A stretch of DNA of 32,000 nt from positions 900,001 through 932,000 of the forward strand of contig NC_014729.1 of assembly GCF_000172995.2 (NCBI RefSeq), given 5' to 3'. The DNA is from Halogeometricum borinquense DSM 11551. Lineage in GTDB: Archaea; Halobacteriota; Halobacteria; Halobacteriales; Haloferacaceae. A model generated the notes under the pieces. The model saw nothing but the letters and a program-made list of their open reading frames with translations. It ran no database searches and had not been told where the DNA came from. Each line of letters begins with the position of its first letter. The first letter of the stretch is position 1. Of this stretch, positions 1 through 21,282 are shown piece after piece. Made by a program: the position numbers and the translations under genes.

Positions 1-972
1 GAGTCTGGCCTCCCGGCCGACCTGTTCGCCGTCGTGACTGGCCGCGGCGACGACATCGGCGAAACCGTGGTCGAAGAATCCGACTACGTCTGCTTCACCG
101 GTAGCACGGAAGTGGGCCGCACTGTCGCAGCAGCGGCCGGACGGAATTTGATCGACTGTTCGCTCGAACTCGGCGGGAAGAATCCGATGCTCGTCCTCTC
201 GGACGCCGACGTGGACGCCGCCGCCGAGAACGCCGCACAGGCGTGTTTCTCGAACGCCGGTCAACTCTGTATCTCCATCGAACGCATCTACGTCGATAGC
301 GACGTGCGCGAGGACTTCCTCGATGCCTTCGTCAGAGAGACACAGCGACTCACGCTTGGCGCGGGGTACGACTTCGACTACGACGTGGGGACGCTCGCGT
401 CCGAAGCCCAGTTAGAAAAAGTCCAATCGCACGTCGAAGACGCCGTAGAGAAAGGTGCGTCAGTACAGACCGGCGGGCGGCGACGCGACGATGTCGGCCC
501 GTACGCGTACGAACCAACAGTGCTGACCGGCGTGACCGACGAAATGCTGTGTGCTGATGCGGAGACGTTCGGACCGGTCGCCGCAGTGTATGAGGTGTCG
601 GGTATCGCTGACGCCGTCGAACGTGCGAACGAGGGACCGTACGGTTTGAACGCGAGCGTCTGGTCGGGTGATACAGCGCGCGCCGAACAGGTCGCCGCAC
701 GCATCGAAGCGGGCACCGTGAACGTCAACGACGGCTACGCCGCAGCGTGGGGGTCGGTGGACGCACCGATGGGCGGCATCGGTGACTCCGGAATCGGCCG
801 ACGGCACGGCGAAGTAGGAATGACGCGGTTCACTGAGTCGCAGACAGTAGCAACCCAGCGTGGACGGCCGCTTACCCGCCCATCGGGTGTCCCCCCGCGG
901 CTTTGGACCTTCCTGCTGAACGCCAACGAACGGCTAGCGAATCGGCTCACTGCTTGGCGACGGAGCGGCTGA
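1..972 (+). CDS. NAD(P)-dependent aldehyde dehydrogenase, C-terminal ~323 aa (5' end lies outside the window)
   Basis: Frame 1 is open from base 1 (ESGLPADLFAVV precedes the GTG at 34 that the track uses as start). ALDH signatures are present: LELGGKNP (catalytic Glu) and NAGQLCISIERIYV (catalytic Cys). TGA at 970-972. Confidence 0.88.
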   Translation, partial: ESGLPADLFAVVTGRGDDIGETVVEESDYVCFTGSTEVGRTVAAAAGRNLIDCSLELGGKNPMLVLSDADVDAAAENAAQACFSNAGQLCISIERIYVDSDVREDFLDAFVRETQRLTLGAGYDFDYDVGTLASEAQLEKVQSHVEDAVEKGASVQTGGRRRDDVGPYAYEPTVLTGVTDEMLCADAETFGPVAAVYEVSGIADAVERANEGPYGLNASVWSGDTARAEQVAARIEAGTVNVNDGYAAAWGSVDAPMGGIGDSGIGRRHGEVGMTRFTESQTVATQRGRPLTRPSGVPPRLWTFLLNANERLANRLTAWRRSG

Positions 973-981
973 ACGCCTTTC

Positions 982-1290
982 TCAGCGGCGTTCGATTCGG
1001 TCGGGGTTTGGAGTCGGCACACATCCGCCGCTGACCGGCGGGAAGAGGGCGAGTTCGTCGCCGTCGCTCACTTCCTCCGAGAGCGACGTGTCCGCACCGT
1101 TTCGCAGGAGGTTCACGTGGTCTGCGAGCACGCCGTCGTCGAAGACACGGGTGCGAAGACCGTCGTGGTTGTCCAAGAGTGCGTCCAGTGCGTCTTCGAC
1201 TGTCGCATCGTCGGCGACGGTGACAGCGGTTTCTCTCTCCCCCGCCACTTCTGCGAGATCGGCGAACAAGCGCCACCGTACGGTCGTCAT
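982..1290 (-). CDS. samp1: Ubiquitin-like small archaeal modifier protein (MoaD/ThiS fold, SAMP1-like) with a 13-aa extension after the diglycine
   Basis: ATG at 1288-1290 gives MTTVRWRLFADLAEVAGE...DELALFPPVSGG. This closely matches my recollection of H. volcanii SAMP1 (MEWKLFADLAEVAG...DELALFPPVSGG). Codon-by-codon reading shows GG (1024-1029) followed by TGT and 12 more sense codons (CVPTPNPDRIERR) before TGA at 982-984. Confidence 0.8.
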   Translation of the reverse strand: MTTVRWRLFADLAEVAGERETAVTVADDATVEDALDALLDNHDGLRTRVFDDGVLADHVNLLRNGADTSLSEEVSDGDELALFPPVSGGCVPTPNPDRIERR

Positions 1291-1357: not shown

Positions 1358-2596
1358 TCAGTCGTCGTCCGAAAGGTCGGTCCCCGCTACCTCGCCCCGT
1401 TCATCCATCTCTGCTGACTTGCCTTCGGGTGCCGTCGCCGCCCGCGCGATGCGCCGAATCGTCTCGGGGCGAGCAACGAGGAACAGGATGTCGCCAGCGG
1501 CAAGTTCCCGCGACCGGGATGGGATCGTTTCGACCGCACCGACGGACGGCCGGACGGCGATGACGGTTGCGTCGAGACTTCGCAACGTCTCTCCGACGAG
1601 TTCACTCCCTGTTTCGACGGGCACCGTCTCCATCGTTTCGTCGGCGCTCCGGAGCAGGGAGGTAAACTCGTGTTCTGCGCCGGGGTCCGACGGAAGCGTC
1701 ACGAGGCGGTACGGCTCCTCATAATCGAGTTGTTGGGCGTCGCTCTCGTCTACGATGACTGTTGCGACGTCGTCCGCCGTCGCACGGAGTTCCGCGCCGA
1801 CGACTCGTTCGGGCGTCCCGTCCTCGCCCGTTCGCCACAGTTGGACGGCGTCACCCGCAGATGCACCGGCACCGGGATCCGCGTGGACGGCGACGGCGGC
1901 GACACCCGGCGGCATCGTCGGCCCCAACCCGGCGACGCGGCGGCCGAGCGCCAGATACGAGACGTTTCCTGCGTCGTCGAGTTCTGCGTCTACGTGGCCG
2001 ACGCCGTAGTCTTCTTTGATGCGAGTCACCAAGCGGTCCGTCAGTGCTTCGCGTGTGAGGCGACGCGGAAACAGGAGCCGTTTGCCCGCCATCTCCGCTT
2101 TCCTGTCTACGGGAACGGGGTCGTAGCCGTCGATGTCAGCTATCTCGGACGCTTCTTCCGGCAGTTCGACCGCCGTGACACGCCCAACTGTTCGGACGAT
2201 GCGACTCACTTCGGCGTCTATCGACCGCGCACCGGCGACGGCGAACACGTCGGTGGCGATTCGGTCACCGACGGACCGCCCGACGGGCGAGGCGACGAGA
2301 GCGGCAAGGAGAATGGTCGAGTTCAGAAGAACCGTCGCCGGATCGAACACCTCCGTCGAGCGCTCCGTCGTCGTTCTGAGGAGCCCAACAGCGTTGAGGT
2401 AGAGTGCCGCCGAAGACCCACCGAACAGGGCGGCCAACCACCGCGGAATGAGTTCGCGGGTGTACCAACGGTATACGATTGCCGCCGTGGCGGAAAGCCC
2501 GGCTGAGAGGGCGGCGAGTCCGACGACCAGCGGAATCTCTTGTAGGAGACCGCCAACCAGTCGAAGGACCGAATCGAGTTGGAGAGGGAGGCTCAC
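1358..2596 (-). CDS. Membrane protein with C-terminal TrkA-C (RCK_C) domain, paralog 1
   Basis: The GTG start at 2594-2596 overlaps the upstream TGA (GTGA). The resulting N-terminus SLPLQLD... parallels the paralog's N-terminus ESLPVELL. It has N-terminal TM helices and a C-terminal TrkA-C-like segment (ETGSELVGETLRSLDATVIAVRP...AAGDILFLVARPE). No in-frame ATG is available near the N-terminus. Confidence 0.75.
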   Translation of the reverse strand: MSLPLQLDSVLRLVGGLLQEIPLVVGLAALSAGLSATAAIVYRWYTRELIPRWLAALFGGSSAALYLNAVGLLRTTTERSTEVFDPATVLLNSTILLAALVASPVGRSVGDRIATDVFAVAGARSIDAEVSRIVRTVGRVTAVELPEEASEIADIDGYDPVPVDRKAEMAGKRLLFPRRLTREALTDRLVTRIKEDYGVGHVDAELDDAGNVSYLALGRRVAGLGPTMPPGVAAVAVHADPGAGASAGDAVQLWRTGEDGTPERVVGAELRATADDVATVIVDESDAQQLDYEEPYRLVTLPSDPGAEHEFTSLLRSADETMETVPVETGSELVGETLRSLDATVIAVRPSVGAVETIPSRSRELAAGDILFLVARPETIRRIARAATAPEGKSAEMDERGEVAGTDLSDDD

Positions 2597-3897
2597 GACA
2601 CCACCTCCGTGAACGTCGTGAGGTCGGAGTACGCGCCGACAACGATCAACTCGTCGTCGGATTGTACCGGTTGGTCGCCGCGGGGGGCAACGGTCCACCG
2701 GCCATCGCGTCTGACCGCCAAGACCACCACATTGTACGTCTCTCGGACGTTCGCCTCTCCCAGCGTCGTGCCGTCGAGGACGCCGTCTTCGCGGGTGGTA
2801 AGCCGACGGAACCGGTTGCCTGTGCGGCGGAGCAGCGTCACAAGTTCGAACTCACGGCGCACGCCACGCGAGCGGACGAGAAGGGCGACATCGTCGGCTG
2901 AGAGTATCTCCGAGGCGTCCTGCCGTCGGACTGCAAGCGTGACCCGCGCCTCGCCACCTGCCGCTGTGGGAACCGCTGCGGGCGGCAACGGAGCGTCGGT
3001 ACGATCACCACCGTCAGACCGGAGGTCCGACGAAGCACGCGAATCAGCGGGTTGTTTCCAACCAGAGCGACGACTTTGCCCGCCGTCTGTGGCGGCCACG
3101 TCTCCGGACTGGGTTTCTTTCGTTCCGTCTACGCCGTCTGCGACGCCGAGAACCGTGGCGTGGAACGTCTCTTCGCCCGCGAGAACCATCACCTCGTCGC
3201 CGCGAGTGGTCCCCGTCGGGACGAGCGCGGTGGTTGAGACAGCACGCTCACCGGGACTGAGTCGTTTCGAGAGCCCGCTCATCGCCGGCGCGGCCGCAAT
3301 CGTCGCCCGAGCGCGTTCGTCCAGCGTCACATCGGCCTCCGCGAGATCGAACTCCGTTCTGAGGCGATCCTCGACCCGTGTCTCCAGTTCCAAAAGCGGT
3401 ACGTCAGCCGGAAACGTCCACTCACTCGTCCGAATCTGGTCACGGAGTGTCGCCGGAAGTGGCGGATAGCCCTCCACGTCCGCAACTTCACCGACCACGG
3501 TCACACGGACCTGTCCGCGTCCGCCGACGAGTTCGACCACGTCCGAAGACAGCGTCCGGGCGGTGAGTTCGCGCAAGGAGAGTTTTCGCGGGAGGTTCGC
3601 CCCCATCTTGTCACCGAGGCTGTGCGCGTACAGCGTCACCATCAGCACGACGAGGAGGGCGACAGTGAGACGAACTTGGTCGTCCGAGACGGTGACCGCC
3701 GGATCAGCGAGGGCGAGGAGGCCGCCGTTGAGCCCCGCGATAGCGACACCGAGACCGACGACAGCTAACCCCGGAATCGTGATGCCGGTGAAGTACCGGA
3801 AGGTAAAGCCGAGCGCCCACGCGATGAGTGCCGGAACGAACCCCGTGAGGACGCCGAGGTAGAGACCGTAGAGCAGTTCGACTGGGAGCGACTCCAT
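2593..3897 (-). CDS. Membrane protein with C-terminal TrkA-C (RCK_C) domain, paralog 2
   Basis: ATG at 3895-3897 (MESLPVELLYG...); the track start at 3903 is a GTG. It has 3-4 N-terminal TM helices. The C-terminus GTTLGEANVRETYNVVVLAVRRDGRWTVAPRGDQPVQSDDELIVVG is TrkA-C-like. Confidence 0.78.
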   Translation of the reverse strand: MESLPVELLYGLYLGVLTGFVPALIAWALGFTFRYFTGITIPGLAVVGLGVAIAGLNGGLLALADPAVTVSDDQVRLTVALLVVLMVTLYAHSLGDKMGANLPRKLSLRELTARTLSSDVVELVGGRGQVRVTVVGEVADVEGYPPLPATLRDQIRTSEWTFPADVPLLELETRVEDRLRTEFDLAEADVTLDERARATIAAAPAMSGLSKRLSPGERAVSTTALVPTGTTRGDEVMVLAGEETFHATVLGVADGVDGTKETQSGDVAATDGGQSRRSGWKQPADSRASSDLRSDGGDRTDAPLPPAAVPTAAGGEARVTLAVRRQDASEILSADDVALLVRSRGVRREFELVTLLRRTGNRFRRLTTREDGVLDGTTLGEANVRETYNVVVLAVRRDGRWTVAPRGDQPVQSDDELIVVGAYSDLTTFTEVVS

Positions 3898-3987
3898 CTG
3901 CACACGTTTCTCGGCGGGAACGGCTTACGCTTATCGCCCACTGTCACTGTCGCGTCCGTTAAGTAGTAAAGTCGCCACCGGTCGGGT

Positions 3988-5205
3988 ATGGTGATCGAAC
4001 GGGAGTGGGTTGGTGCACGCGCGTCGATGGTGTTGACGTTCCTCGTGGGCGCACTCTCCGTCGCAACGGGTATCGCCAATATCACCGTCACTATCGACGC
4101 TCCCGACTTCGTACTGTTCGGTATCACCCTGCCCGGCTACGTCCAGCAGATCACCGCGTTCACAGGCACGCTTACCGGCTTTCTCCTTCTCGTCACCGCG
4201 TTCGGCCTTCGCCGACGCCTTCGAGTCGGGTGGTATGCAACGATGGTGCTGTTTCCCGTCACTGTCGCGCAGGGGGCGTTACAGTCAACTGAGCAGTCGA
4301 TTCCGCTCATCGGTCTCTCGACGATTGCGTTCGTCGTCGTCGGCTTGAACTTCCGGGCGTTCGACCGCGAGTTGCAACTGACGACGACGCAGGTCGCCGC
4401 GTTGACTGCCCTCGCTGGCGCACAGGCGTACGGAACCGTCGGCGCGTTTGCCTTGCGTGATCCTCACTTCGACGGTATCCACAACCTCTTGGACGCCTTT
4501 TACTTCTCGTTGGTCACCGGCAGTACGGTCGGCTATGGCGATATCACACCGGCACCGACCTCGGCCGTCGGCGAACTGTTCACTCTCTCGGTGATTCTAG
4601 TCACCGTTTCGTCGTTCGCCGCCGTCCTCGGTGTCGTCTTCACGCCACTCATCGAAGCGCAACTCTCCAAAGCACTCGGACGCATGACAGAAGAACAACT
4701 CGACCTCCTCGAAAACCACGTTCTCGTCCTCGGTCACGGGGACCTGACGGAACCGATTCTCGAAGAACTCACGCAGAAGACGGACGTTCTCATCCTCACG
4801 CCTGACGAGGAGCGAACGCGTCGGTTGACAGACCGTGGGTACACCGTCCTCACCGCCGATCCGAGCGACGAAGACTCACAGATTCGCGGACGCGTGAAGT
4901 CCGCACAGGCCGTCGTCACGGCGACGAACAACGACGCCGAGGACGCGCTCGCCATCCTCACGGCACGGCAACTCAACCCCGAGGTGACTATCGTCGCCGC
5001 CGCCACCCACCGCGAGAACGTGAACAAACTGAAGCGGGCGGGTGCGGATACCGTCATCAGTCCGGCGGCGTTGGGTGCGCACTTCCTCGCGGAATCCGCT
5101 CTCGGAGGCGAGGGCGTCGAAGAGTTAGCACAACGGCTGATGGCTGAAGAACCGTCGCAAGACGGTGACGCACAGGACGTTCTCAGAGACGAGGACGACG
5201 CTTAA
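3988..5205 (+). CDS. Potassium channel protein (pore TVGYGD) with cytoplasmic TrkA-N/RCK domain
   Basis: K+ selectivity filter GSTVGYGDITP. Rossmann-like RCK segment HVLVLGHGDLTEPILEEL...VTATNNDAEDALAILTAR. ATG at 3988. Acidic C-terminal tail. Confidence 0.9.
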   Translation: MVIEREWVGARASMVLTFLVGALSVATGIANITVTIDAPDFVLFGITLPGYVQQITAFTGTLTGFLLLVTAFGLRRRLRVGWYATMVLFPVTVAQGALQSTEQSIPLIGLSTIAFVVVGLNFRAFDRELQLTTTQVAALTALAGAQAYGTVGAFALRDPHFDGIHNLLDAFYFSLVTGSTVGYGDITPAPTSAVGELFTLSVILVTVSSFAAVLGVVFTPLIEAQLSKALGRMTEEQLDLLENHVLVLGHGDLTEPILEELTQKTDVLILTPDEERTRRLTDRGYTVLTADPSDEDSQIRGRVKSAQAVVTATNNDAEDALAILTARQLNPEVTIVAAATHRENVNKLKRAGADTVISPAALGAHFLAESALGGEGVEELAQRLMAEEPSQDGDAQDVLRDEDDA

Positions 5206-16721: not shown

Positions 16722-17612
16722 TTACTCGGTCAGAATCTCACAGCCGTCTTCGGTGACGATGATCGTGTGTTCGGCCTGACTCACGAGTTCACCGTCGTCT
16801 TCCTTCAGGACGGGGTAGCCGTGCAGGACGTTCTGCTGTTTGAGACGCTGGATAGCGATATCAGCACGCGGGGCGTCGATCCACCGCGCGGCGAACGGGA
16901 GCGTCTTGTACTCGTCTTTGACCTGTTCGAGAACCTGTCGCGCCGAGCGGTTGCGGACCGACCGGTCGCGTTCGAGGCTGTAAATCTCCTCTTTTGCACC
17001 TTCGGTGACTTTGCCGGATCCCGTCGTGGCGAACGGTTCGATAGCGACCACGTCGCCGACTTCGAACTCGATGCCGCGTTCTGCGCCGCGGTTCGGAACG
17101 TTCGGACCCGTGTGGGCGTCCCACTGTTCGACGCCGTGCCCGGAGAGGTTCAGGACGGGCGTGTAGCCGTACCCGCGAATCACGTCTTCGATCTCCGCGC
17201 CGACGGCACCTGTCTGGACGCCGGGGGCGACGGCATCGAGGGCGGCGTCAAGCGCCTCCTCTGCGGCTTCTTTCAGTTCGGCGTTACCGGAGAGGTCCAC
17301 TGTGACCGCCGCGTCGGCGATGTAGCCGTCCACGTGGACGCCGCAGTCGAGACAGACCATGTCCTCGCCGAACTCGGTCTCGTCGTCGCGCCCCGGACTC
17401 GCGTGCGACGCTTCCTCGTTCACGCTGATGTTGACCGGGAACGCACAGCCGTCTGCGAGTTCGTAGATTCTGTCTTCGGCGTACTCGGCGACTTCCAAAT
17501 GCGTCACGCCCGGTTCGACCATCTCGGCCGTCTCGTCGAGAACCTGCCGGAGGATCTGTCCCGCCTCCCGGTATTTCTCGACCGTCTCCTCGTCGAGGGG
17601 TCCGATGCTCAT
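16722..17612 (-). CDS. map: Methionine aminopeptidase, type 2
   Basis: ATG at 17610-17612 (MSIGPLDEETVEKYREAG...). It has a pita-bread fold with metal ligands (DCGVHVDGYIAD, SGHGV, AIEPFAT, AEHTIIV). Confidence 0.93.
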   Translation of the reverse strand: MSIGPLDEETVEKYREAGQILRQVLDETAEMVEPGVTHLEVAEYAEDRIYELADGCAFPVNISVNEEASHASPGRDDETEFGEDMVCLDCGVHVDGYIADAAVTVDLSGNAELKEAAEEALDAALDAVAPGVQTGAVGAEIEDVIRGYGYTPVLNLSGHGVEQWDAHTGPNVPNRGAERGIEFEVGDVVAIEPFATTGSGKVTEGAKEEIYSLERDRSVRNRSARQVLEQVKDEYKTLPFAARWIDAPRADIAIQRLKQQNVLHGYPVLKEDDGELVSQAEHTIIVTEDGCEILTE

Positions 17613-17831
17613 GCCCTCTCGTTTGCGCGAGCGAATGAAAGAGGTTGCGGACCCCGCTCCGTCCGCCGAACACGGCGATTCGAGAGGGAACGCTGTGGGT
17701 GTTCGAGTCGGCTCTGACGCTGCGAGCAACCTGCACCGGACAGAGTTTCGATTCCTCGCGTGTCTATATACCGCACATACGCGCTCCTAGCAACGGTTTA
17801 TTAGCTTCGTACCATCCCGTCAGAGGAAACG

Positions 17832-18582: not shown

Positions 18583-19347
18583 CTACGCGGCGTTTGCCTC
18601 GGGAGACGCATCGGCATCGTCTTCGTCGAGGAGCAACACGGTGTACTGCCCCGAAAGCCACGCGAGACCGTTCAGGATGTTCAACGTCACGATACCGAGG
18701 ATCACGCCGAGTCCGGCAACAGCAAGCGCCTCCGAGAGCGTCGTCACCTGCCACGAGGTGAGTCGGAAAGCGGTACGGACGCCGACAAGGAGACCGTCCC
18801 AGCCGAGGAGCATCTGGGGTCTGAAGACGGCCGGTTCGGAGGTGACGATGCCGACGTACACGCCCGGTTGGTCGTAGACGAACGGGATCATGAGAAACGA
18901 GACGGCCGTCGTGAGAAGCGACATAATGGCGGTAAAGGAGATAAGTCCCAAGATGAGTTTGCTGGCCAGATAGAAGACCGCCTTCCACGTCCGCTGGCTG
19001 ACGACGAGTTGTTTCACTCGTTCGACGAGCGGGCCGTCGCTGGATGTCGTCGGTGAACGAACCGAGACGCCCAACAGGAGCGTCGCTAGTTTCCGTTCGA
19101 CGGAAGCGAGACCGAGCGCGGCCGCGAGGACGAACAGGAGGATTGGGATCCCGATGACGACGAACGTGAGACTGACGCCGACGCTAAAGCCGATAGAGAA
19201 GAACAGAAAGTAGAGCAGACCGAGCGGAAACGCCAGTGAGAGATACAGCAGATTCCGGTACGTTTGGAGCCGCAGTGGCGCGGTAACCGCTGACCGGACA
19301 GAAAGCGTCGGCCCAACTGACGCGCCGGAAAGAGCGTCGCTTAACAT
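18583..19347 (-). CDS. Sensor-like polytopic membrane protein, paralog A (resembles the putative-sensor TM domain family; to be verified)
   Basis: ATG at 19345-19347 with a GTTTATTT box about 30 nt upstream. It shares the blocks LRLQTYRNLLYLSLAFPLGLLYF, VVIGIPILL and LASVERKLA with the ORF at 20608-21282. About 6 TM helices and an acidic tail. Confidence 0.72.
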   Translation of the reverse strand: MLSDALSGASVGPTLSVRSAVTAPLRLQTYRNLLYLSLAFPLGLLYFLFFSIGFSVGVSLTFVVIGIPILLFVLAAALGLASVERKLATLLLGVSVRSPTTSSDGPLVERVKQLVVSQRTWKAVFYLASKLILGLISFTAIMSLLTTAVSFLMIPFVYDQPGVYVGIVTSEPAVFRPQMLLGWDGLLVGVRTAFRLTSWQVTTLSEALAVAGLGVILGIVTLNILNGLAWLSGQYTVLLLDEDDADASPEANAA

Positions 19348-19553
19348 GGTTTACGAGTGACACTCTCGCCGGGAGAAATAAACGTTCCGCGCAGTCGCTG
19401 AGCGAGAAAGTGACCGAACACTGTTACAGAGAGCGGCGTCAATGCCCCTGACGGAGCCGGATACGTGTGGAACATCAGCAGCCGCCATCGCTGCCAAATC
19501 AGCCATCGTCACTCTCTCAGCCGTCGTCGTGAGTTGCGTCCGAGGTGTACAGG

Positions 19554-19560
19554 TTTTTAT
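19554..19560 (+). promoter_or_regulatory. TATA-like box (TTTTTAT) for a leaderless wHTH operon transcript
   Basis: The box is centred about 28 nt upstream of the ATG at 19585, which is the usual haloarchaeal TATA-to-TSS spacing. Confidence 0.45.
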
Positions 19561-19584
19561 CGAATGACAGGAAAGCAGGAATCG

Positions 19585-19950
19585 ATGAGTACGGGCGACC
19601 GGGACACGGACGAGGAACTCGTAAGTCTCCTCGACGACCGGTACGCCCGCGAAATACTGGTCGAGACCCGTGAGGAACCACGGTCGGCCGACGCACTCAG
19701 CGAGGCGTGTGACGCGTCAGCTTCGACCATATACCGTCGCATCGAACGACTCCGCAAGCACGACCTGTTGGAGGGACAGCAGCGACTCGACCCGGACGGA
19801 CACCATTACGAGGTGTACGCCGCACGCCTCCGCAAGGTTACGATTGAACTGACGCCCGACGGGTTCACCGTGACGGTCGATTGCGAGGAGGACGAGGAAA
19901 CGGCCGCAGATCGGTTCACAAGCCTGTACGAGGAGTTGTCCGGAACATGA
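19585..19950 (+). CDS. Winged helix-turn-helix transcriptional regulator (ArsR/PadR-like, haloarchaeal type)
   Basis: ATG at 19585 (an alternative ATG is at 19564; the track start is a GTG at 19465). LLDDRYAREILVETREEPRSADALSEACDASASTIYRRIERLRKHDLL forms the HTH, followed by a wing and an acidic C-terminal domain. The stop overlaps the next start (ATGA). Confidence 0.78.
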   Translation: MSTGDRDTDEELVSLLDDRYAREILVETREEPRSADALSEACDASASTIYRRIERLRKHDLLEGQQRLDPDGHHYEVYAARLRKVTIELTPDGFTVTVDCEEDEETAADRFTSLYEELSGT

Positions 19951-20252
19951 TAGGCCAAGTGTCGGTAACGGGCGGGTCAGCTCCGGTGGTTCTCTCCGTC
20001 TTTACCCTGTTTGCAGCCTCGCTCGTCCTCTCGGTGTTGGTGACGTATCGCTTCGCACGCGGCTACCTCCGGACGGGAACTCGTCCGCTGTTACAACTGG
20101 CCGTTGGGATGCTCCTGCTTGCGGTGGTCCCGATACTTCTCAGAGTCTCTCTGACGACCGCTGGTATCGATTCGAATATGCGCATTCTCGCAACGAGCGT
20201 CAGCGAGTTGTTCGGTCTCCTGACTATCCTGTACACGATTTACGACCAATGA
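19947..20252 (+). CDS. Small 3-TM membrane protein, first of two tandem paralogs
   Basis: The ATG at 19947 overlaps the regulator's TGA (ATGA). After TM1 comes the motif TYRFARGYLRTG. The product is hydrophobic, about 100 aa. Confidence 0.7.
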   Translation: MIGQVSVTGGSAPVVLSVFTLFAASLVLSVLVTYRFARGYLRTGTRPLLQLAVGMLLLAVVPILLRVSLTTAGIDSNMRILATSVSELFGLLTILYTIYDQ

Positions 20253-20518
20253 CAATAGCCGTACTCTCCACCGTCACGACCGCACTCACCGTCGTCGTCG
20301 GCGTGTTCGTCGCGTCGCTGGCCTACCGCGGCTACCGTCGCAACGACAGCGAGACGATGCGTGCGCTCGTCGTCGGTATCGTCCTCATCGCTGTCGTTCC
20401 CGGTCTCGCCACGACCGGTCTGCCGGCCGTCGTGGAGGTAAACGACGCGGGAGTCCTCCTTGTCGCCCTTCTATCGCACACGCTTGGCCTCGTCGCAATC
20501 TATCGTTCGCTGGACTAA
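20249..20518 (+). CDS. Small 3-TM membrane protein, second of two tandem paralogs
   Basis: The ATG at 20249 overlaps the previous TGA (ATGA). After TM1 comes the motif AYRGYRRNDS, matching the position of the TYRFARGY motif in the preceding protein. Confidence 0.7.
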   Translation: MTIAVLSTVTTALTVVVGVFVASLAYRGYRRNDSETMRALVVGIVLIAVVPGLATTGLPAVVEVNDAGVLLVALLSHTLGLVAIYRSLD

Positions 20519-20521
20519 TCG

Positions 20522-20535
20522 TATTTATATTTTTA
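20522..20535 (+). promoter_or_regulatory. AT-rich element TATTTATATTTTTA (oligo-T terminator for the operon and/or TATA box for the next gene)
   Basis: This is the only strongly AT-rich run in the locus. It lies 4 nt after the stop at 20518 and about 75 nt upstream of the ATG at 20608. Confidence 0.4.
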
Positions 20536-20607
20536 GACGAGTTGCCCGCCCGGCGAGTCGTCGGGAGTGTATACCACCTTCTTGACCGATGTATCGAGTA
20601 GAGGCAG

Positions 20608-21282
20608 ATGACAGACACAGCATCTTCCACCGACAAAGGACTGATACGCCGATTTTTCGGCGTTCCGTTCCGCGTACAGACGTACAAGAACCTGGTGTAT
20701 CTCGCGCTCGGCTTCCCGTTCGGACTCGTCTCGTTCGTCACGTTGACATCCGGACTGACTGCCGGAGCGGGGCTTTCGGTAACGCTCATCGGCATTCCCA
20801 TTCTTTTGGCGACCATCGCCGCGGGAACTGCCTTGGCGAGCGTCGAGGCCGGACTGACTCGCGCCCTTGTCGGCGTGAACGCGTCGCCGCCTAAGGCTGC
20901 CGCTGCTGTCTCGAACGGAACCGCGTCCGATGACGATATCATGGCGGCGATCAAGCGGTTCCTCGCCGAGCCGTCGACATGGACGAGCCTCCTCGTCGCC
21001 TTCCTGTGGTTCATCTTCGGACTCGTCGGATTCGTCGCCCTGACGACGCTCTCGTCGCTGTCCCTCTCGATGCTCGGTGCGCCCGTACTCCACCTCTTCG
21101 CGCCGGGCGTGGATATGATGGTCGGCCCGTACGTCGTCGATACGCTGTCGGAGTCGGCCGCACTCACCGCCGTCGGTATCCCCCTGACGCTCGTCTCCCT
21201 CCACGCATTGAACGCGCTCGCGTACGCCTTCGGTCGTATCACGGCCTCGCTTCTCAACGTGGGCCAAACGGCCGAGAACTGA
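20608..21282 (+). CDS. Sensor-like polytopic membrane protein, paralog B
   Basis: ATG at 20608. The blocks FRVQTYKNLVYLALGFPFGLVSF, TLIGIPILL and LASVEAGLT are shared with 18583-19347. About 6 TM helices. Confidence 0.72.
   Translation: MTDTASSTDKGLIRRFFGVPFRVQTYKNLVYLALGFPFGLVSFVTLTSGLTAGAGLSVTLIGIPILLATIAAGTALASVEAGLTRALVGVNASPPKAAAAVSNGTASDDDIMAAIKRFLAEPSTWTSLLVAFLWFIFGLVGFVALTTLSSLSLSMLGAPVLHLFAPGVDMMVGPYVVDTLSESAALTAVGIPLTLVSLHALNALAYAFGRITASLLNVGQTAEN

Follow-up and report, generated by a model that had tools for sequence, protein, structure and literature searches.

The DNA analysed here is a 32-kb stretch of the haloarchaeon Halogeometricum borinquense DSM 11551 (hereafter, the window), and our subject within it is a reverse-strand gene for SAMP1, a ubiquitin-like modifier and sulfur carrier of the MoaD type. 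The open reading frame (ORF) starts with ATG at 1290-1288, and the protein runs MTTVRW...DELALFPPVSGG up to a diglycine (GG) and then continues: the core, MTTVRWRLFADLAEVAGERETAVTVADDATVEDALDALLDNHDGLRTRVFDDGVLADHVNLLRNGADTSLSEEVSDGDELALFPPVSGG, is followed by a tail, CVPTPNPDRIERR, before the TGA at 984-982 (Table 1). The 89-residue core ends in ...FPPVSGG (Ser87 at 1032-1030, Gly88 at 1029-1027, Gly89 at 1026-1024), and the tail codons (1023-985) read TGT GTG CCG ACT CCA AAC CCC GAC CGA ATC GAA CGC CGC. At the gene level there is consequently no free C-terminal GG, as 13 codons lie between GG and stop. The first-pass annotation of the window had described the ORF, GG, tail and stop in this form, all of which are present, and it was also correct that the codon directly after GG is TGT, one substitution away from TGA; this codon (1023-1021) encodes Cys90. 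In the 102-residue form, the tryptic peptide that bridges GG and tail is ...PPVSGGCVPTPNPDR. By analogy with related systems, we consider it probable that the product is a precursor (pro-SAMP1) consisting of a conserved core and a dispensable tail, the latter removed by a haloarchaeal desampylase that would cut after GG.

Table 1. Features of the window referred to in the text, in window positions.
Feature	Position	Strand	Remarks
Complete pro-SAMP1 ORF	982..1290	-	102 codons + TGA stop; exact match to H. borinquense ADQ66552.1
Beta-grasp core, residues 1-89, predicted mature SAMP1	1024..1290	-	ThiS and SAMP1 profiles end at residue 89
13-codon C-terminal tail CVPTPNPDRIERR, predicted propeptide	985..1023	-	predicted cleavage between Gly89 and Cys90
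TGA stop of pro-SAMP1	982..984	-	kept in 4/4 H. borinquense genomes
Aldehyde dehydrogenase gene, 3' part	1..972 (stop 970-972)	+	convergent with SAMP1; Pfam Aldedh E=1.2e-86
DUF8167/TrkA_C membrane-protein gene	1358..2596	-	directly upstream of SAMP1; Pfam TrkA_C; DUF8167 domains in strain locus L081
Tandem DUF8167/TrkA_C paralogue	2593..3903	-	upstream of the preceding gene
M24 metallopeptidase gene	16722..17729		
PF13796 'Putative sensor' membrane gene	18583..19347	-	divergent from the second PF13796 gene
HTH_20 / HVO_A0261_N-type regulator gene	19465..19950		between the two PF13796 genes
PF13796 'Putative sensor' membrane gene	20608..21282	+	

Judged by sequence and predicted fold, the protein encoded at 982-1290 is a SAMP1 orthologue. 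It is identical to the DSM 11551 record ADQ66552.1 / WP_006053777.1 and was recognised by the NCBIfam SAMP1 equivalog NF041918 (109.9 bits, cut-off 60) over residues 4-89, with the end of the profile falling on the second Gly. The archaeal MoaD family TIGR01687 (moaD_arch) also matched (61.3 against a cut-off of 49.5), as did Pfam ThiS over residues 7-89 (E=4.7e-15), and the Gly88-Gly89 pair at the domain end lies inside the invariant DELALFPPVSGG motif. The closest solved structures in the PDB were those of Haloferax volcanii SAMP1 (HVO_2619), namely 3PO0 (best), 2L83 and 4HRO, at E about 1e-27; the two proteins have orthologous cores and an identical C-terminal motif. An AlphaFold2 model of pro-SAMP1 built with 20 homologues (mean predicted local distance difference test score, pLDDT, of 82) placed beta-grasp strands and helices between residues 2 and 83 (block means of pLDDT were 80-93 for residues 1-80), and coil after residue 83 through residue 102 at pLDDT of about 57-64, tail included. 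The tail is thus predicted by the model to be accessible and unstructured. SAMP1-type function would further entail adenylation, thiocarboxylation and conjugation, all dependent on the E1-like enzyme UbaA.

The first-pass annotation offered three origins for the tail: a precursor in need of proteolytic maturation, a recent stop-loss allele, or a sequencing error. The 102-codon ORF and an identical TGA were found in DSM 11551 and in the three further assemblies GCA_004150395, GCA_010692885 and GCA_011765365. Tails in the other H. borinquense assemblies read CVPTPNPDRTERR and RAPTPNPDRTERR, and two of the assemblies have CGT (Arg) directly behind GG. With the 13-codon tail and its stop shared by four independent H. 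borinquense genomes, the tail is real sequence, and an error of sequencing or assembly is ruled out by the agreement of these assemblies on ORF length and stop.

Core and tail differ in how they vary among the four genomes. In a DNA alignment, the 89 core codons differed by six silent changes and by one codon replacement (E73T); in the 13 tail codons, replacements numbered three (C90R, V91A and I99T) and silent changes four, so that amino-acid variability was higher in the tail (3/13) than in the core (1/89; Fisher p=0.006). Invariant across the four strain tails are their length and the residues PTPNPDR.ERR. Counted as substitutions, eight differences fell in the 39-nt tail and nine in the 267-nt core, a density several-fold higher in the tail, which is also several-fold above that of the adjacent aldehyde dehydrogenase 3' end. 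The single core replacement, E73T, consists of three adjacent nucleotide changes from GAA to ACG (window 1072-1074; 3217-3219 in the strain loci L082 and L083; alignment columns 227-229). On the evidence of these alignments, purifying selection constrains the SAMP1 core, and the tail keeps its length but changes far more rapidly.

Tails of this kind are widespread. A species-level scan with one genome per GTDB species yielded 546 SAMP1-like loci, of which the best 80 were examined and 79 could be scored: 41/79 were tailed and 38/79 had a stop directly after GG. The tails comprised one residue at six loci, two at four, three at four, four at 18, five at one, seven at three and eight at two, with 13, 17 and 66 residues at one locus each. 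Of the closest 120 homologues listed, 60 stop at GG; a further 30 carry a single additional residue, mostly Arg, and the remaining 30 carry 2-13. When 341 pooled sequences were reduced to 210 clusters at 80% identity, tails occurred in 69/210, and single-residue tails, again mostly Arg, made up about a third of the tailed sequences. An exhaustive search clustered at 50% identity showed that tails and some long fusions are also present in remoter archaeal MoaD-type relatives. The tail is therefore real, in frame, fast-evolving and widespread in the family. The premise of the first-pass annotation that MoaD/ThiS carriers and SAMPs are always made with a free GG does not hold, given tails in about half of the haloarchaeal SAMP1 orthologues examined and about a third of the wider family. 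Of the two things it had proposed to look for in an alignment of orthologues, residues beyond GG do exist (at the 41 loci above) but they are not conserved.

Lack of conservation is most evident close to H. borinquense. Among Halogeometricum genomes, H. pallidum and strain S1BR25-6 are tail-less, and the tail is AGRRRV in H. rufum, ASSHHRV in Halogeometricum limi and 13 residues long in H. borinquense. When Halogeometricum and Halopelagius loci were aligned, DNA homology ended precisely at the GG codons. The Halogeometricum tails are therefore of independent origin, and a conserved tail common to relatives was rejected on the same ground. A 13-residue tail from a Haloquadratum metagenome-assembled genome, SGVSPGPGTVDRR, was likewise considered as a relative and rejected, since about 16/39 nucleotides are alike (by hand count), which is near chance for GC-rich DNA. 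The idea of a recent stop-loss allele survives in part: the tail is species-specific and homology ends at GG, but it is common to four genomes and hence no strain allele. All 11 Haloferax loci (11/11) have a stop after GG, and the solved H. volcanii SAMP1 likewise ends there, which may be the reason why nothing in the model organism pointed to tails.

The searches also returned longer and more unusual C-termini. The longest extensions comprised two MoaD-MoaE fusions (MoaE after GG in P0206 and P0241), one fusion of MoaD to a LysR-type helix-turn-helix domain (HTH_1 in P0191) and six extensions of 80-175 residues with no recognised domain after GG (P0193, P0220, P0221, P0229, P0243 and P0267). 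In a protein of 4282 residues (P0140), 16 separate stretches matched SAMP1 residues 36-71 (E=2.9e-17). This protein is probably an acidic repeat protein whose repeat unit resembles part of the beta-grasp sequence, or else a compositional match. In Halorubrum (about 18 loci, e.g., L024, L026, L028, L031, L047 and L057), a four-residue tail of the form xxGR, xxER or xxDR plus TAG is followed immediately by conserved DNA, ATCGGTCGTTTCAAACG (L028 4270-4335), which lies about 27-30 nt upstream of the start codon (ATG) of a gene for deoxyhypusine synthase (PF01916). This element is probably the B recognition element (BRE)/TATA promoter of a leaderless deoxyhypusine synthase transcript. At the Halorubrum xinjiangense locus (L040, about 4270-4330), a 4-nt deletion, GGCCGAT[AGAT]CGGTCG, removes the TAG and gives a 17-residue tail that reads through this promoter motif, and Halorubrum sp. 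SY-15 (L075) has an Arg-rich tail of 66 residues. No other tail at the 79 species loci reaches these lengths, and both are candidates for either natural stop-loss events or assembly errors.

Two features of the tails suggest that selection acts on them as a class. Their median length is four residues, compared with about 50 expected if the stops of tail-less genes were read through to the next in-frame stop in these GC-rich genomes (Mann-Whitney p=8e-13, a value overstated as the species are related and not independent); judging from the sequences, long tails have evidently been purged. The residue directly after GG is also restricted. In 79 semi-independent tail events it was never Pro (0/79), compared with 7.8% Pro at other tail positions (p about 0.002), and Pro makes up about 13% of the codons following the stop in the scanned loci. 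Pro is allowed within tails, with three in that of H. borinquense. Small residues (G, A, S, T and C) were enriched after GG, at 56% against 36% elsewhere in tails (p=4e-4). The mutational paths open to a stop codon account for Ser, Arg, Cys, Gly, Leu and Gln after GG, but not for the absence of Pro: among residues two changes away from a stop, Ala was seen 11 times and Thr seven times, and Pro not once. Short tails, with small residues and no Pro after GG, are the pattern expected if a single endoproteolytic cut between GG and the following residue (GG|X) is required.

Around the gene, the stops of the convergent aldehyde dehydrogenase gene and SAMP1 are separated by 9 nt, and the three other H. 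borinquense strain loci (L081-L083) have the same convergent arrangement. The SAMP1 tail takes up what would otherwise be intergenic space between the two genes, whose transcripts probably overlap at their 3' ends. On the other side, a gap of 67 nt separates SAMP1 from tandem DUF8167/TrkA_C paralogues, the proximal of which stands directly upstream of SAMP1 in 77/83 loci (tblastn; 3 H. borinquense strains included). The pairing is strongly conserved over many genera, albeit without a known functional link, and the two genes may be co-transcribed. Pfam annotation of the 32-kb window revealed no gene for UbaA/E1, MoaE or a protease for SAMP1 beside SAMP1, and no Rfam families or tRNAs were detected in the window. 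A bacterial-type scan, of limited relevance to archaea, found no intrinsic-terminator-like or sigma-70-like sites in 800-1500. With these scans empty, an RNA element or terminator was rejected as an explanation of the tail region. Elsewhere in the window (18583-21282), two divergent PF13796 genes flank a regulator gene and a small ORF; these are unrelated to the SAMP1 tail.

Proteases that could perform the cut are common in haloarchaea. Searches were baited with a synthetic MPN+ sequence (validated against JAMM structures in the PDB) and then with the real desampylase of Halobellus limi, and recovered >1000 desampylase-like proteins, every named match being haloarchaeal. Equivalogs of the desampylase family NF041370 (149-155 bits, cut-off 130) were found in four organisms that also have a tailed SAMP1: Halobellus sp. 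Atlit-31R (tail SERCDPVA), Halobellus sp. EA9, Halorubrum ezzemoulense (tail AADR) and Halorubrum sp. DTA98 (tail S). Separately, NF041370 genes were noted on plasmid-classed records of 248-768 kb from Halobellus limi, two Halorubrum species, Halolamina and Natrononativus. That of Halobellus limi (L084 3001-3408, plasmid NZ_CP031312.1) lies between Nramp and MFS transporter genes.

Precursors with residues after GG have been described outside eukaryotes, contrary to the first-pass annotation, which held that only eukaryotic ubiquitins are made in this way. A maturation role was predicted for JAB domains by Iyer et al. 2006 (PMC1779556). HvJAMM1 of H. volcanii was shown, both in vitro and in vivo, to cut a linear SAMP1-MoaE protein exactly after GG, a cut that activates molybdopterin synthase and is needed for its activation from a fusion (PMC4443979, Cao et al. 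2015). H. volcanii SAMP1 is itself translated with a free GG, and linear cleavage was shown with this engineered fusion only; the H. borinquense extension differs in that it occurs naturally, spans 13 residues and is no folded domain. Natural MoaD-MoaE fusions (Deinococcus DRMoaD-MoaE with DRJAMM, PMC8832034; list in PMC4443979) are similar in having a blocked GG and JAMM cleavage, but their extension is a functional folded partner domain rather than a short disordered peptide.

Closer parallels come from Caldiarchaeum subterraneum, in which archaeal ubiquitin-like and MoaD-type proteins with post-GG residues are cut by a cognate JAMM protease: CsJAMM cleaves the SAMP precursors Csub_C0702 as well as Csub_C1603/CsMoaD, and CsRpn11 cleaves CsUb-pre (PMC6043591). 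CsUb-pre has a 9-residue tail that begins with Cys, as does that of H. borinquense. CsRpn11 cuts CsUb-pre faster when a small residue follows GG, and the bulky replacements Cys79Glu and Gly80Trp just after the cut block it (PMC6043591), in line with the post-GG pattern of the haloarchaeal tails. C. subterraneum belongs to another phylum, however, and its JAMM gene Csub_C0703 adjoins the SAMP gene Csub_C0702 by locus tag, whereas no JAMM motif was present within 4 kb of SAMP1 in the 80 haloarchaeal loci. Among bacterial MoaD/ThiS-type carriers, QbsE (GG+CF) is matured by QbsD and CxnE (GG+SEAARAEESR) by CxnF, both JAMM proteases (PMC5925218), which remove 2-10 post-GG residues before adenylation and thiocarboxylation. 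In contrast to SAMP1, these carriers are encoded with their own protease in secondary-metabolite clusters and specifically serve the insertion of sulfur into siderophores or antibiotics rather than molybdenum cofactor synthesis or protein conjugation. The precursors of eukaryotic ubiquitin, SUMO and NEDD8 resemble pro-SAMP1 in their short, poorly conserved post-GG tails, removed before E1 activation. They differ in relying mainly on cysteine-protease deubiquitinases and ubiquitin-like-protein-specific proteases, and SAMP1 differs from them in its MoaD-type core and its additional role as a sulfur carrier. By analogy, H. borinquense pro-SAMP1 resembles published JAMM-matured ubiquitin-like and sulfur-carrier precursors and is no new kind of system.

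In H. volcanii, UbaA adenylates the terminal Gly carboxylate of SAMP1, and MoaE, into which the SAMP1 thiocarboxylate inserts, needs the Gly thiocarboxylate for molybdopterin synthesis (PMC4443979). As both require a free terminal Gly, the tail would have to be removed. We propose that H. borinquense makes a normal, selectively maintained SAMP1/MoaD-type core (residues 1-89) with a disordered, lineage-specific 13-residue tail that would itself lack any sequence-specific function. Before E1 activation, one endoproteolytic cut would separate Gly89 from Cys90, and the likeliest enzyme would be the haloarchaeal desampylase, an orthologue of HvJAMM1 and a Zn-dependent JAMM/MPN+ protease. Were this processing activity constitutive, the position of the stop after GG would be only weakly constrained and nearly neutral, and short tails could come and go neutrally within limits set by their length and by the cleavability of the residue after GG. 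The best-supported of the three options raised at first pass is proteolytic maturation, for example through a JAMM/MPN+ desampylase; we infer both the cleavage of the H. borinquense tail and the enzyme responsible from analogy.

Several observations weigh against maturation by a desampylase. No H. borinquense desampylase was among the 120 matches listed in either of two protein searches, the 32-kb window contained no JAMM/MPN+ protease gene, and the search of related loci for a JAMM motif near SAMP1 was, as noted above, negative. The cut exactly after GG was shown for related systems (PMC4443979, PMC6043591) and is extrapolated from them to haloarchaeal tails. The absence of Pro after GG could stem in part from mutational paths, as Pro is two changes away from a stop codon, though Ala and Thr are likewise. 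Arg follows GG in other H. borinquense strains and is the second commonest residue there overall; not being small, it makes the analogy with the preference of CsRpn11 imperfect. As to neutrality, the ratio of amino-acid-changing to silent differences in the strain tails is not clearly 1, with counts too small to decide, and the overlap of the Halorubrum tail and stop with a promoter-like motif means that some tail conservation may reflect constraint at the DNA level.

The same evidence was weighed against other explanations. The tail might be a functional gate, pro-SAMP1 being inactive until a regulated cleavage lets molybdopterin synthesis and sampylation start. Any residue after GG blocks adenylation, so that activity would depend on the protease (PMC4443979); tail length and stop are kept in the four strains, which share PTPNPDR.ERR; and eukaryotic ubiquitin-like precursors also have variable tails that are still processed. 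Yet species of one genus may or may not have a tail, and their tails differ in length and sequence; two Halogeometricum and all 11 Haloferax are tail-less, the tailed sequences include about a third with a single residue, and the neighbourhood suggests no dedicated regulator or protease. A gate gained and lost so freely among close relatives would hardly make an important control point, and we regard this explanation as unlikely. The suggestion at first pass that the tail adds a regulatory step found no support for the same reason, namely the free variation of sequence, length and presence among close relatives. We are equally doubtful of a broader form of the idea, in which the desampylase, besides deconjugating, would be an obligatory SAMP1-activating protease in about half of the Haloferacales species examined. 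Whatever its sequence, the tail would in that case tie molybdopterin synthesis and sampylation to desampylase activity, as a controllable step repeatedly gained and lost, and would provide the linear-peptidase activity of HvJAMM1-type enzymes with its natural substrate.

Somewhat less probable still is removal of the tail by another endopeptidase or by stepwise carboxypeptidase trimming. The lack of an H. borinquense desampylase among the matches listed would fit such a route, one-residue tails (mostly Arg) could be removed by a basic carboxypeptidase, and the window does contain an M24 metallopeptidase gene, though M24 enzymes act on N-termini. Pro residues usually stall exopeptidase trimming. 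Their occurrence within tails (7.8%; three here) but never after GG points instead to a single GG|X cut; exopeptidases would moreover need a way to stop exactly at GG, and JAMM proteases are the sole enzymes so far shown to make the GG cut in archaea. We give even less credence to a tail that stays in place, leaving SAMP1 disabled for adenylation and either decaying as a paralogue takes over or acting non-covalently. Haloarchaea have several MoaD/ThiS-type paralogues (SAMP1-3 in H. volcanii), which could take over the role of SAMP1. Against this stand the strong conservation of the core (six synonymous differences to one changed codon), its intact DELALFPPVSGG motif and an equivalog score far over the cut-off. 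Parallel pseudogenisation is also implausible when about half of the haloarchaeal species examined are tailed and both the core and the DUF8167/TrkA_C gene order are kept, and neither the short length of the tails nor the lack of Pro after GG would make sense for a dead C-terminus. Finally, it is next to impossible that the gene truly ends at GG and that sequencing, assembly or annotation created the tail. The single substitution between TGT and TGA would make such an artefact conceivable, but the four assemblies agree, the CGT found in two of them is also not a stop, and tails are widespread in other genera.

We found no description of natural SAMP1 tails in haloarchaea in the literature searched, although its coverage was incomplete and this is weak evidence that they are unreported; the survey of tails, together with what it showed for the first post-GG position, may be of modest use as a new observation. 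At the gene level, archaeal SAMP1/MoaD proteins do not as a rule end in a free GG, which corrects a common assumption, and a third to half of the sequences examined would need C-terminal trimming. In tailed species, the mature protein will be predicted wrongly by annotation pipelines and proteomics searches that presuppose either an end at ...GG or the whole ORF. The preference for small residues and the absence of Pro after GG amount to a prediction on the specificity of the desampylase. The tails also suggest a natural substrate for linear cleavage by haloarchaeal desampylases of the HvJAMM1 type.

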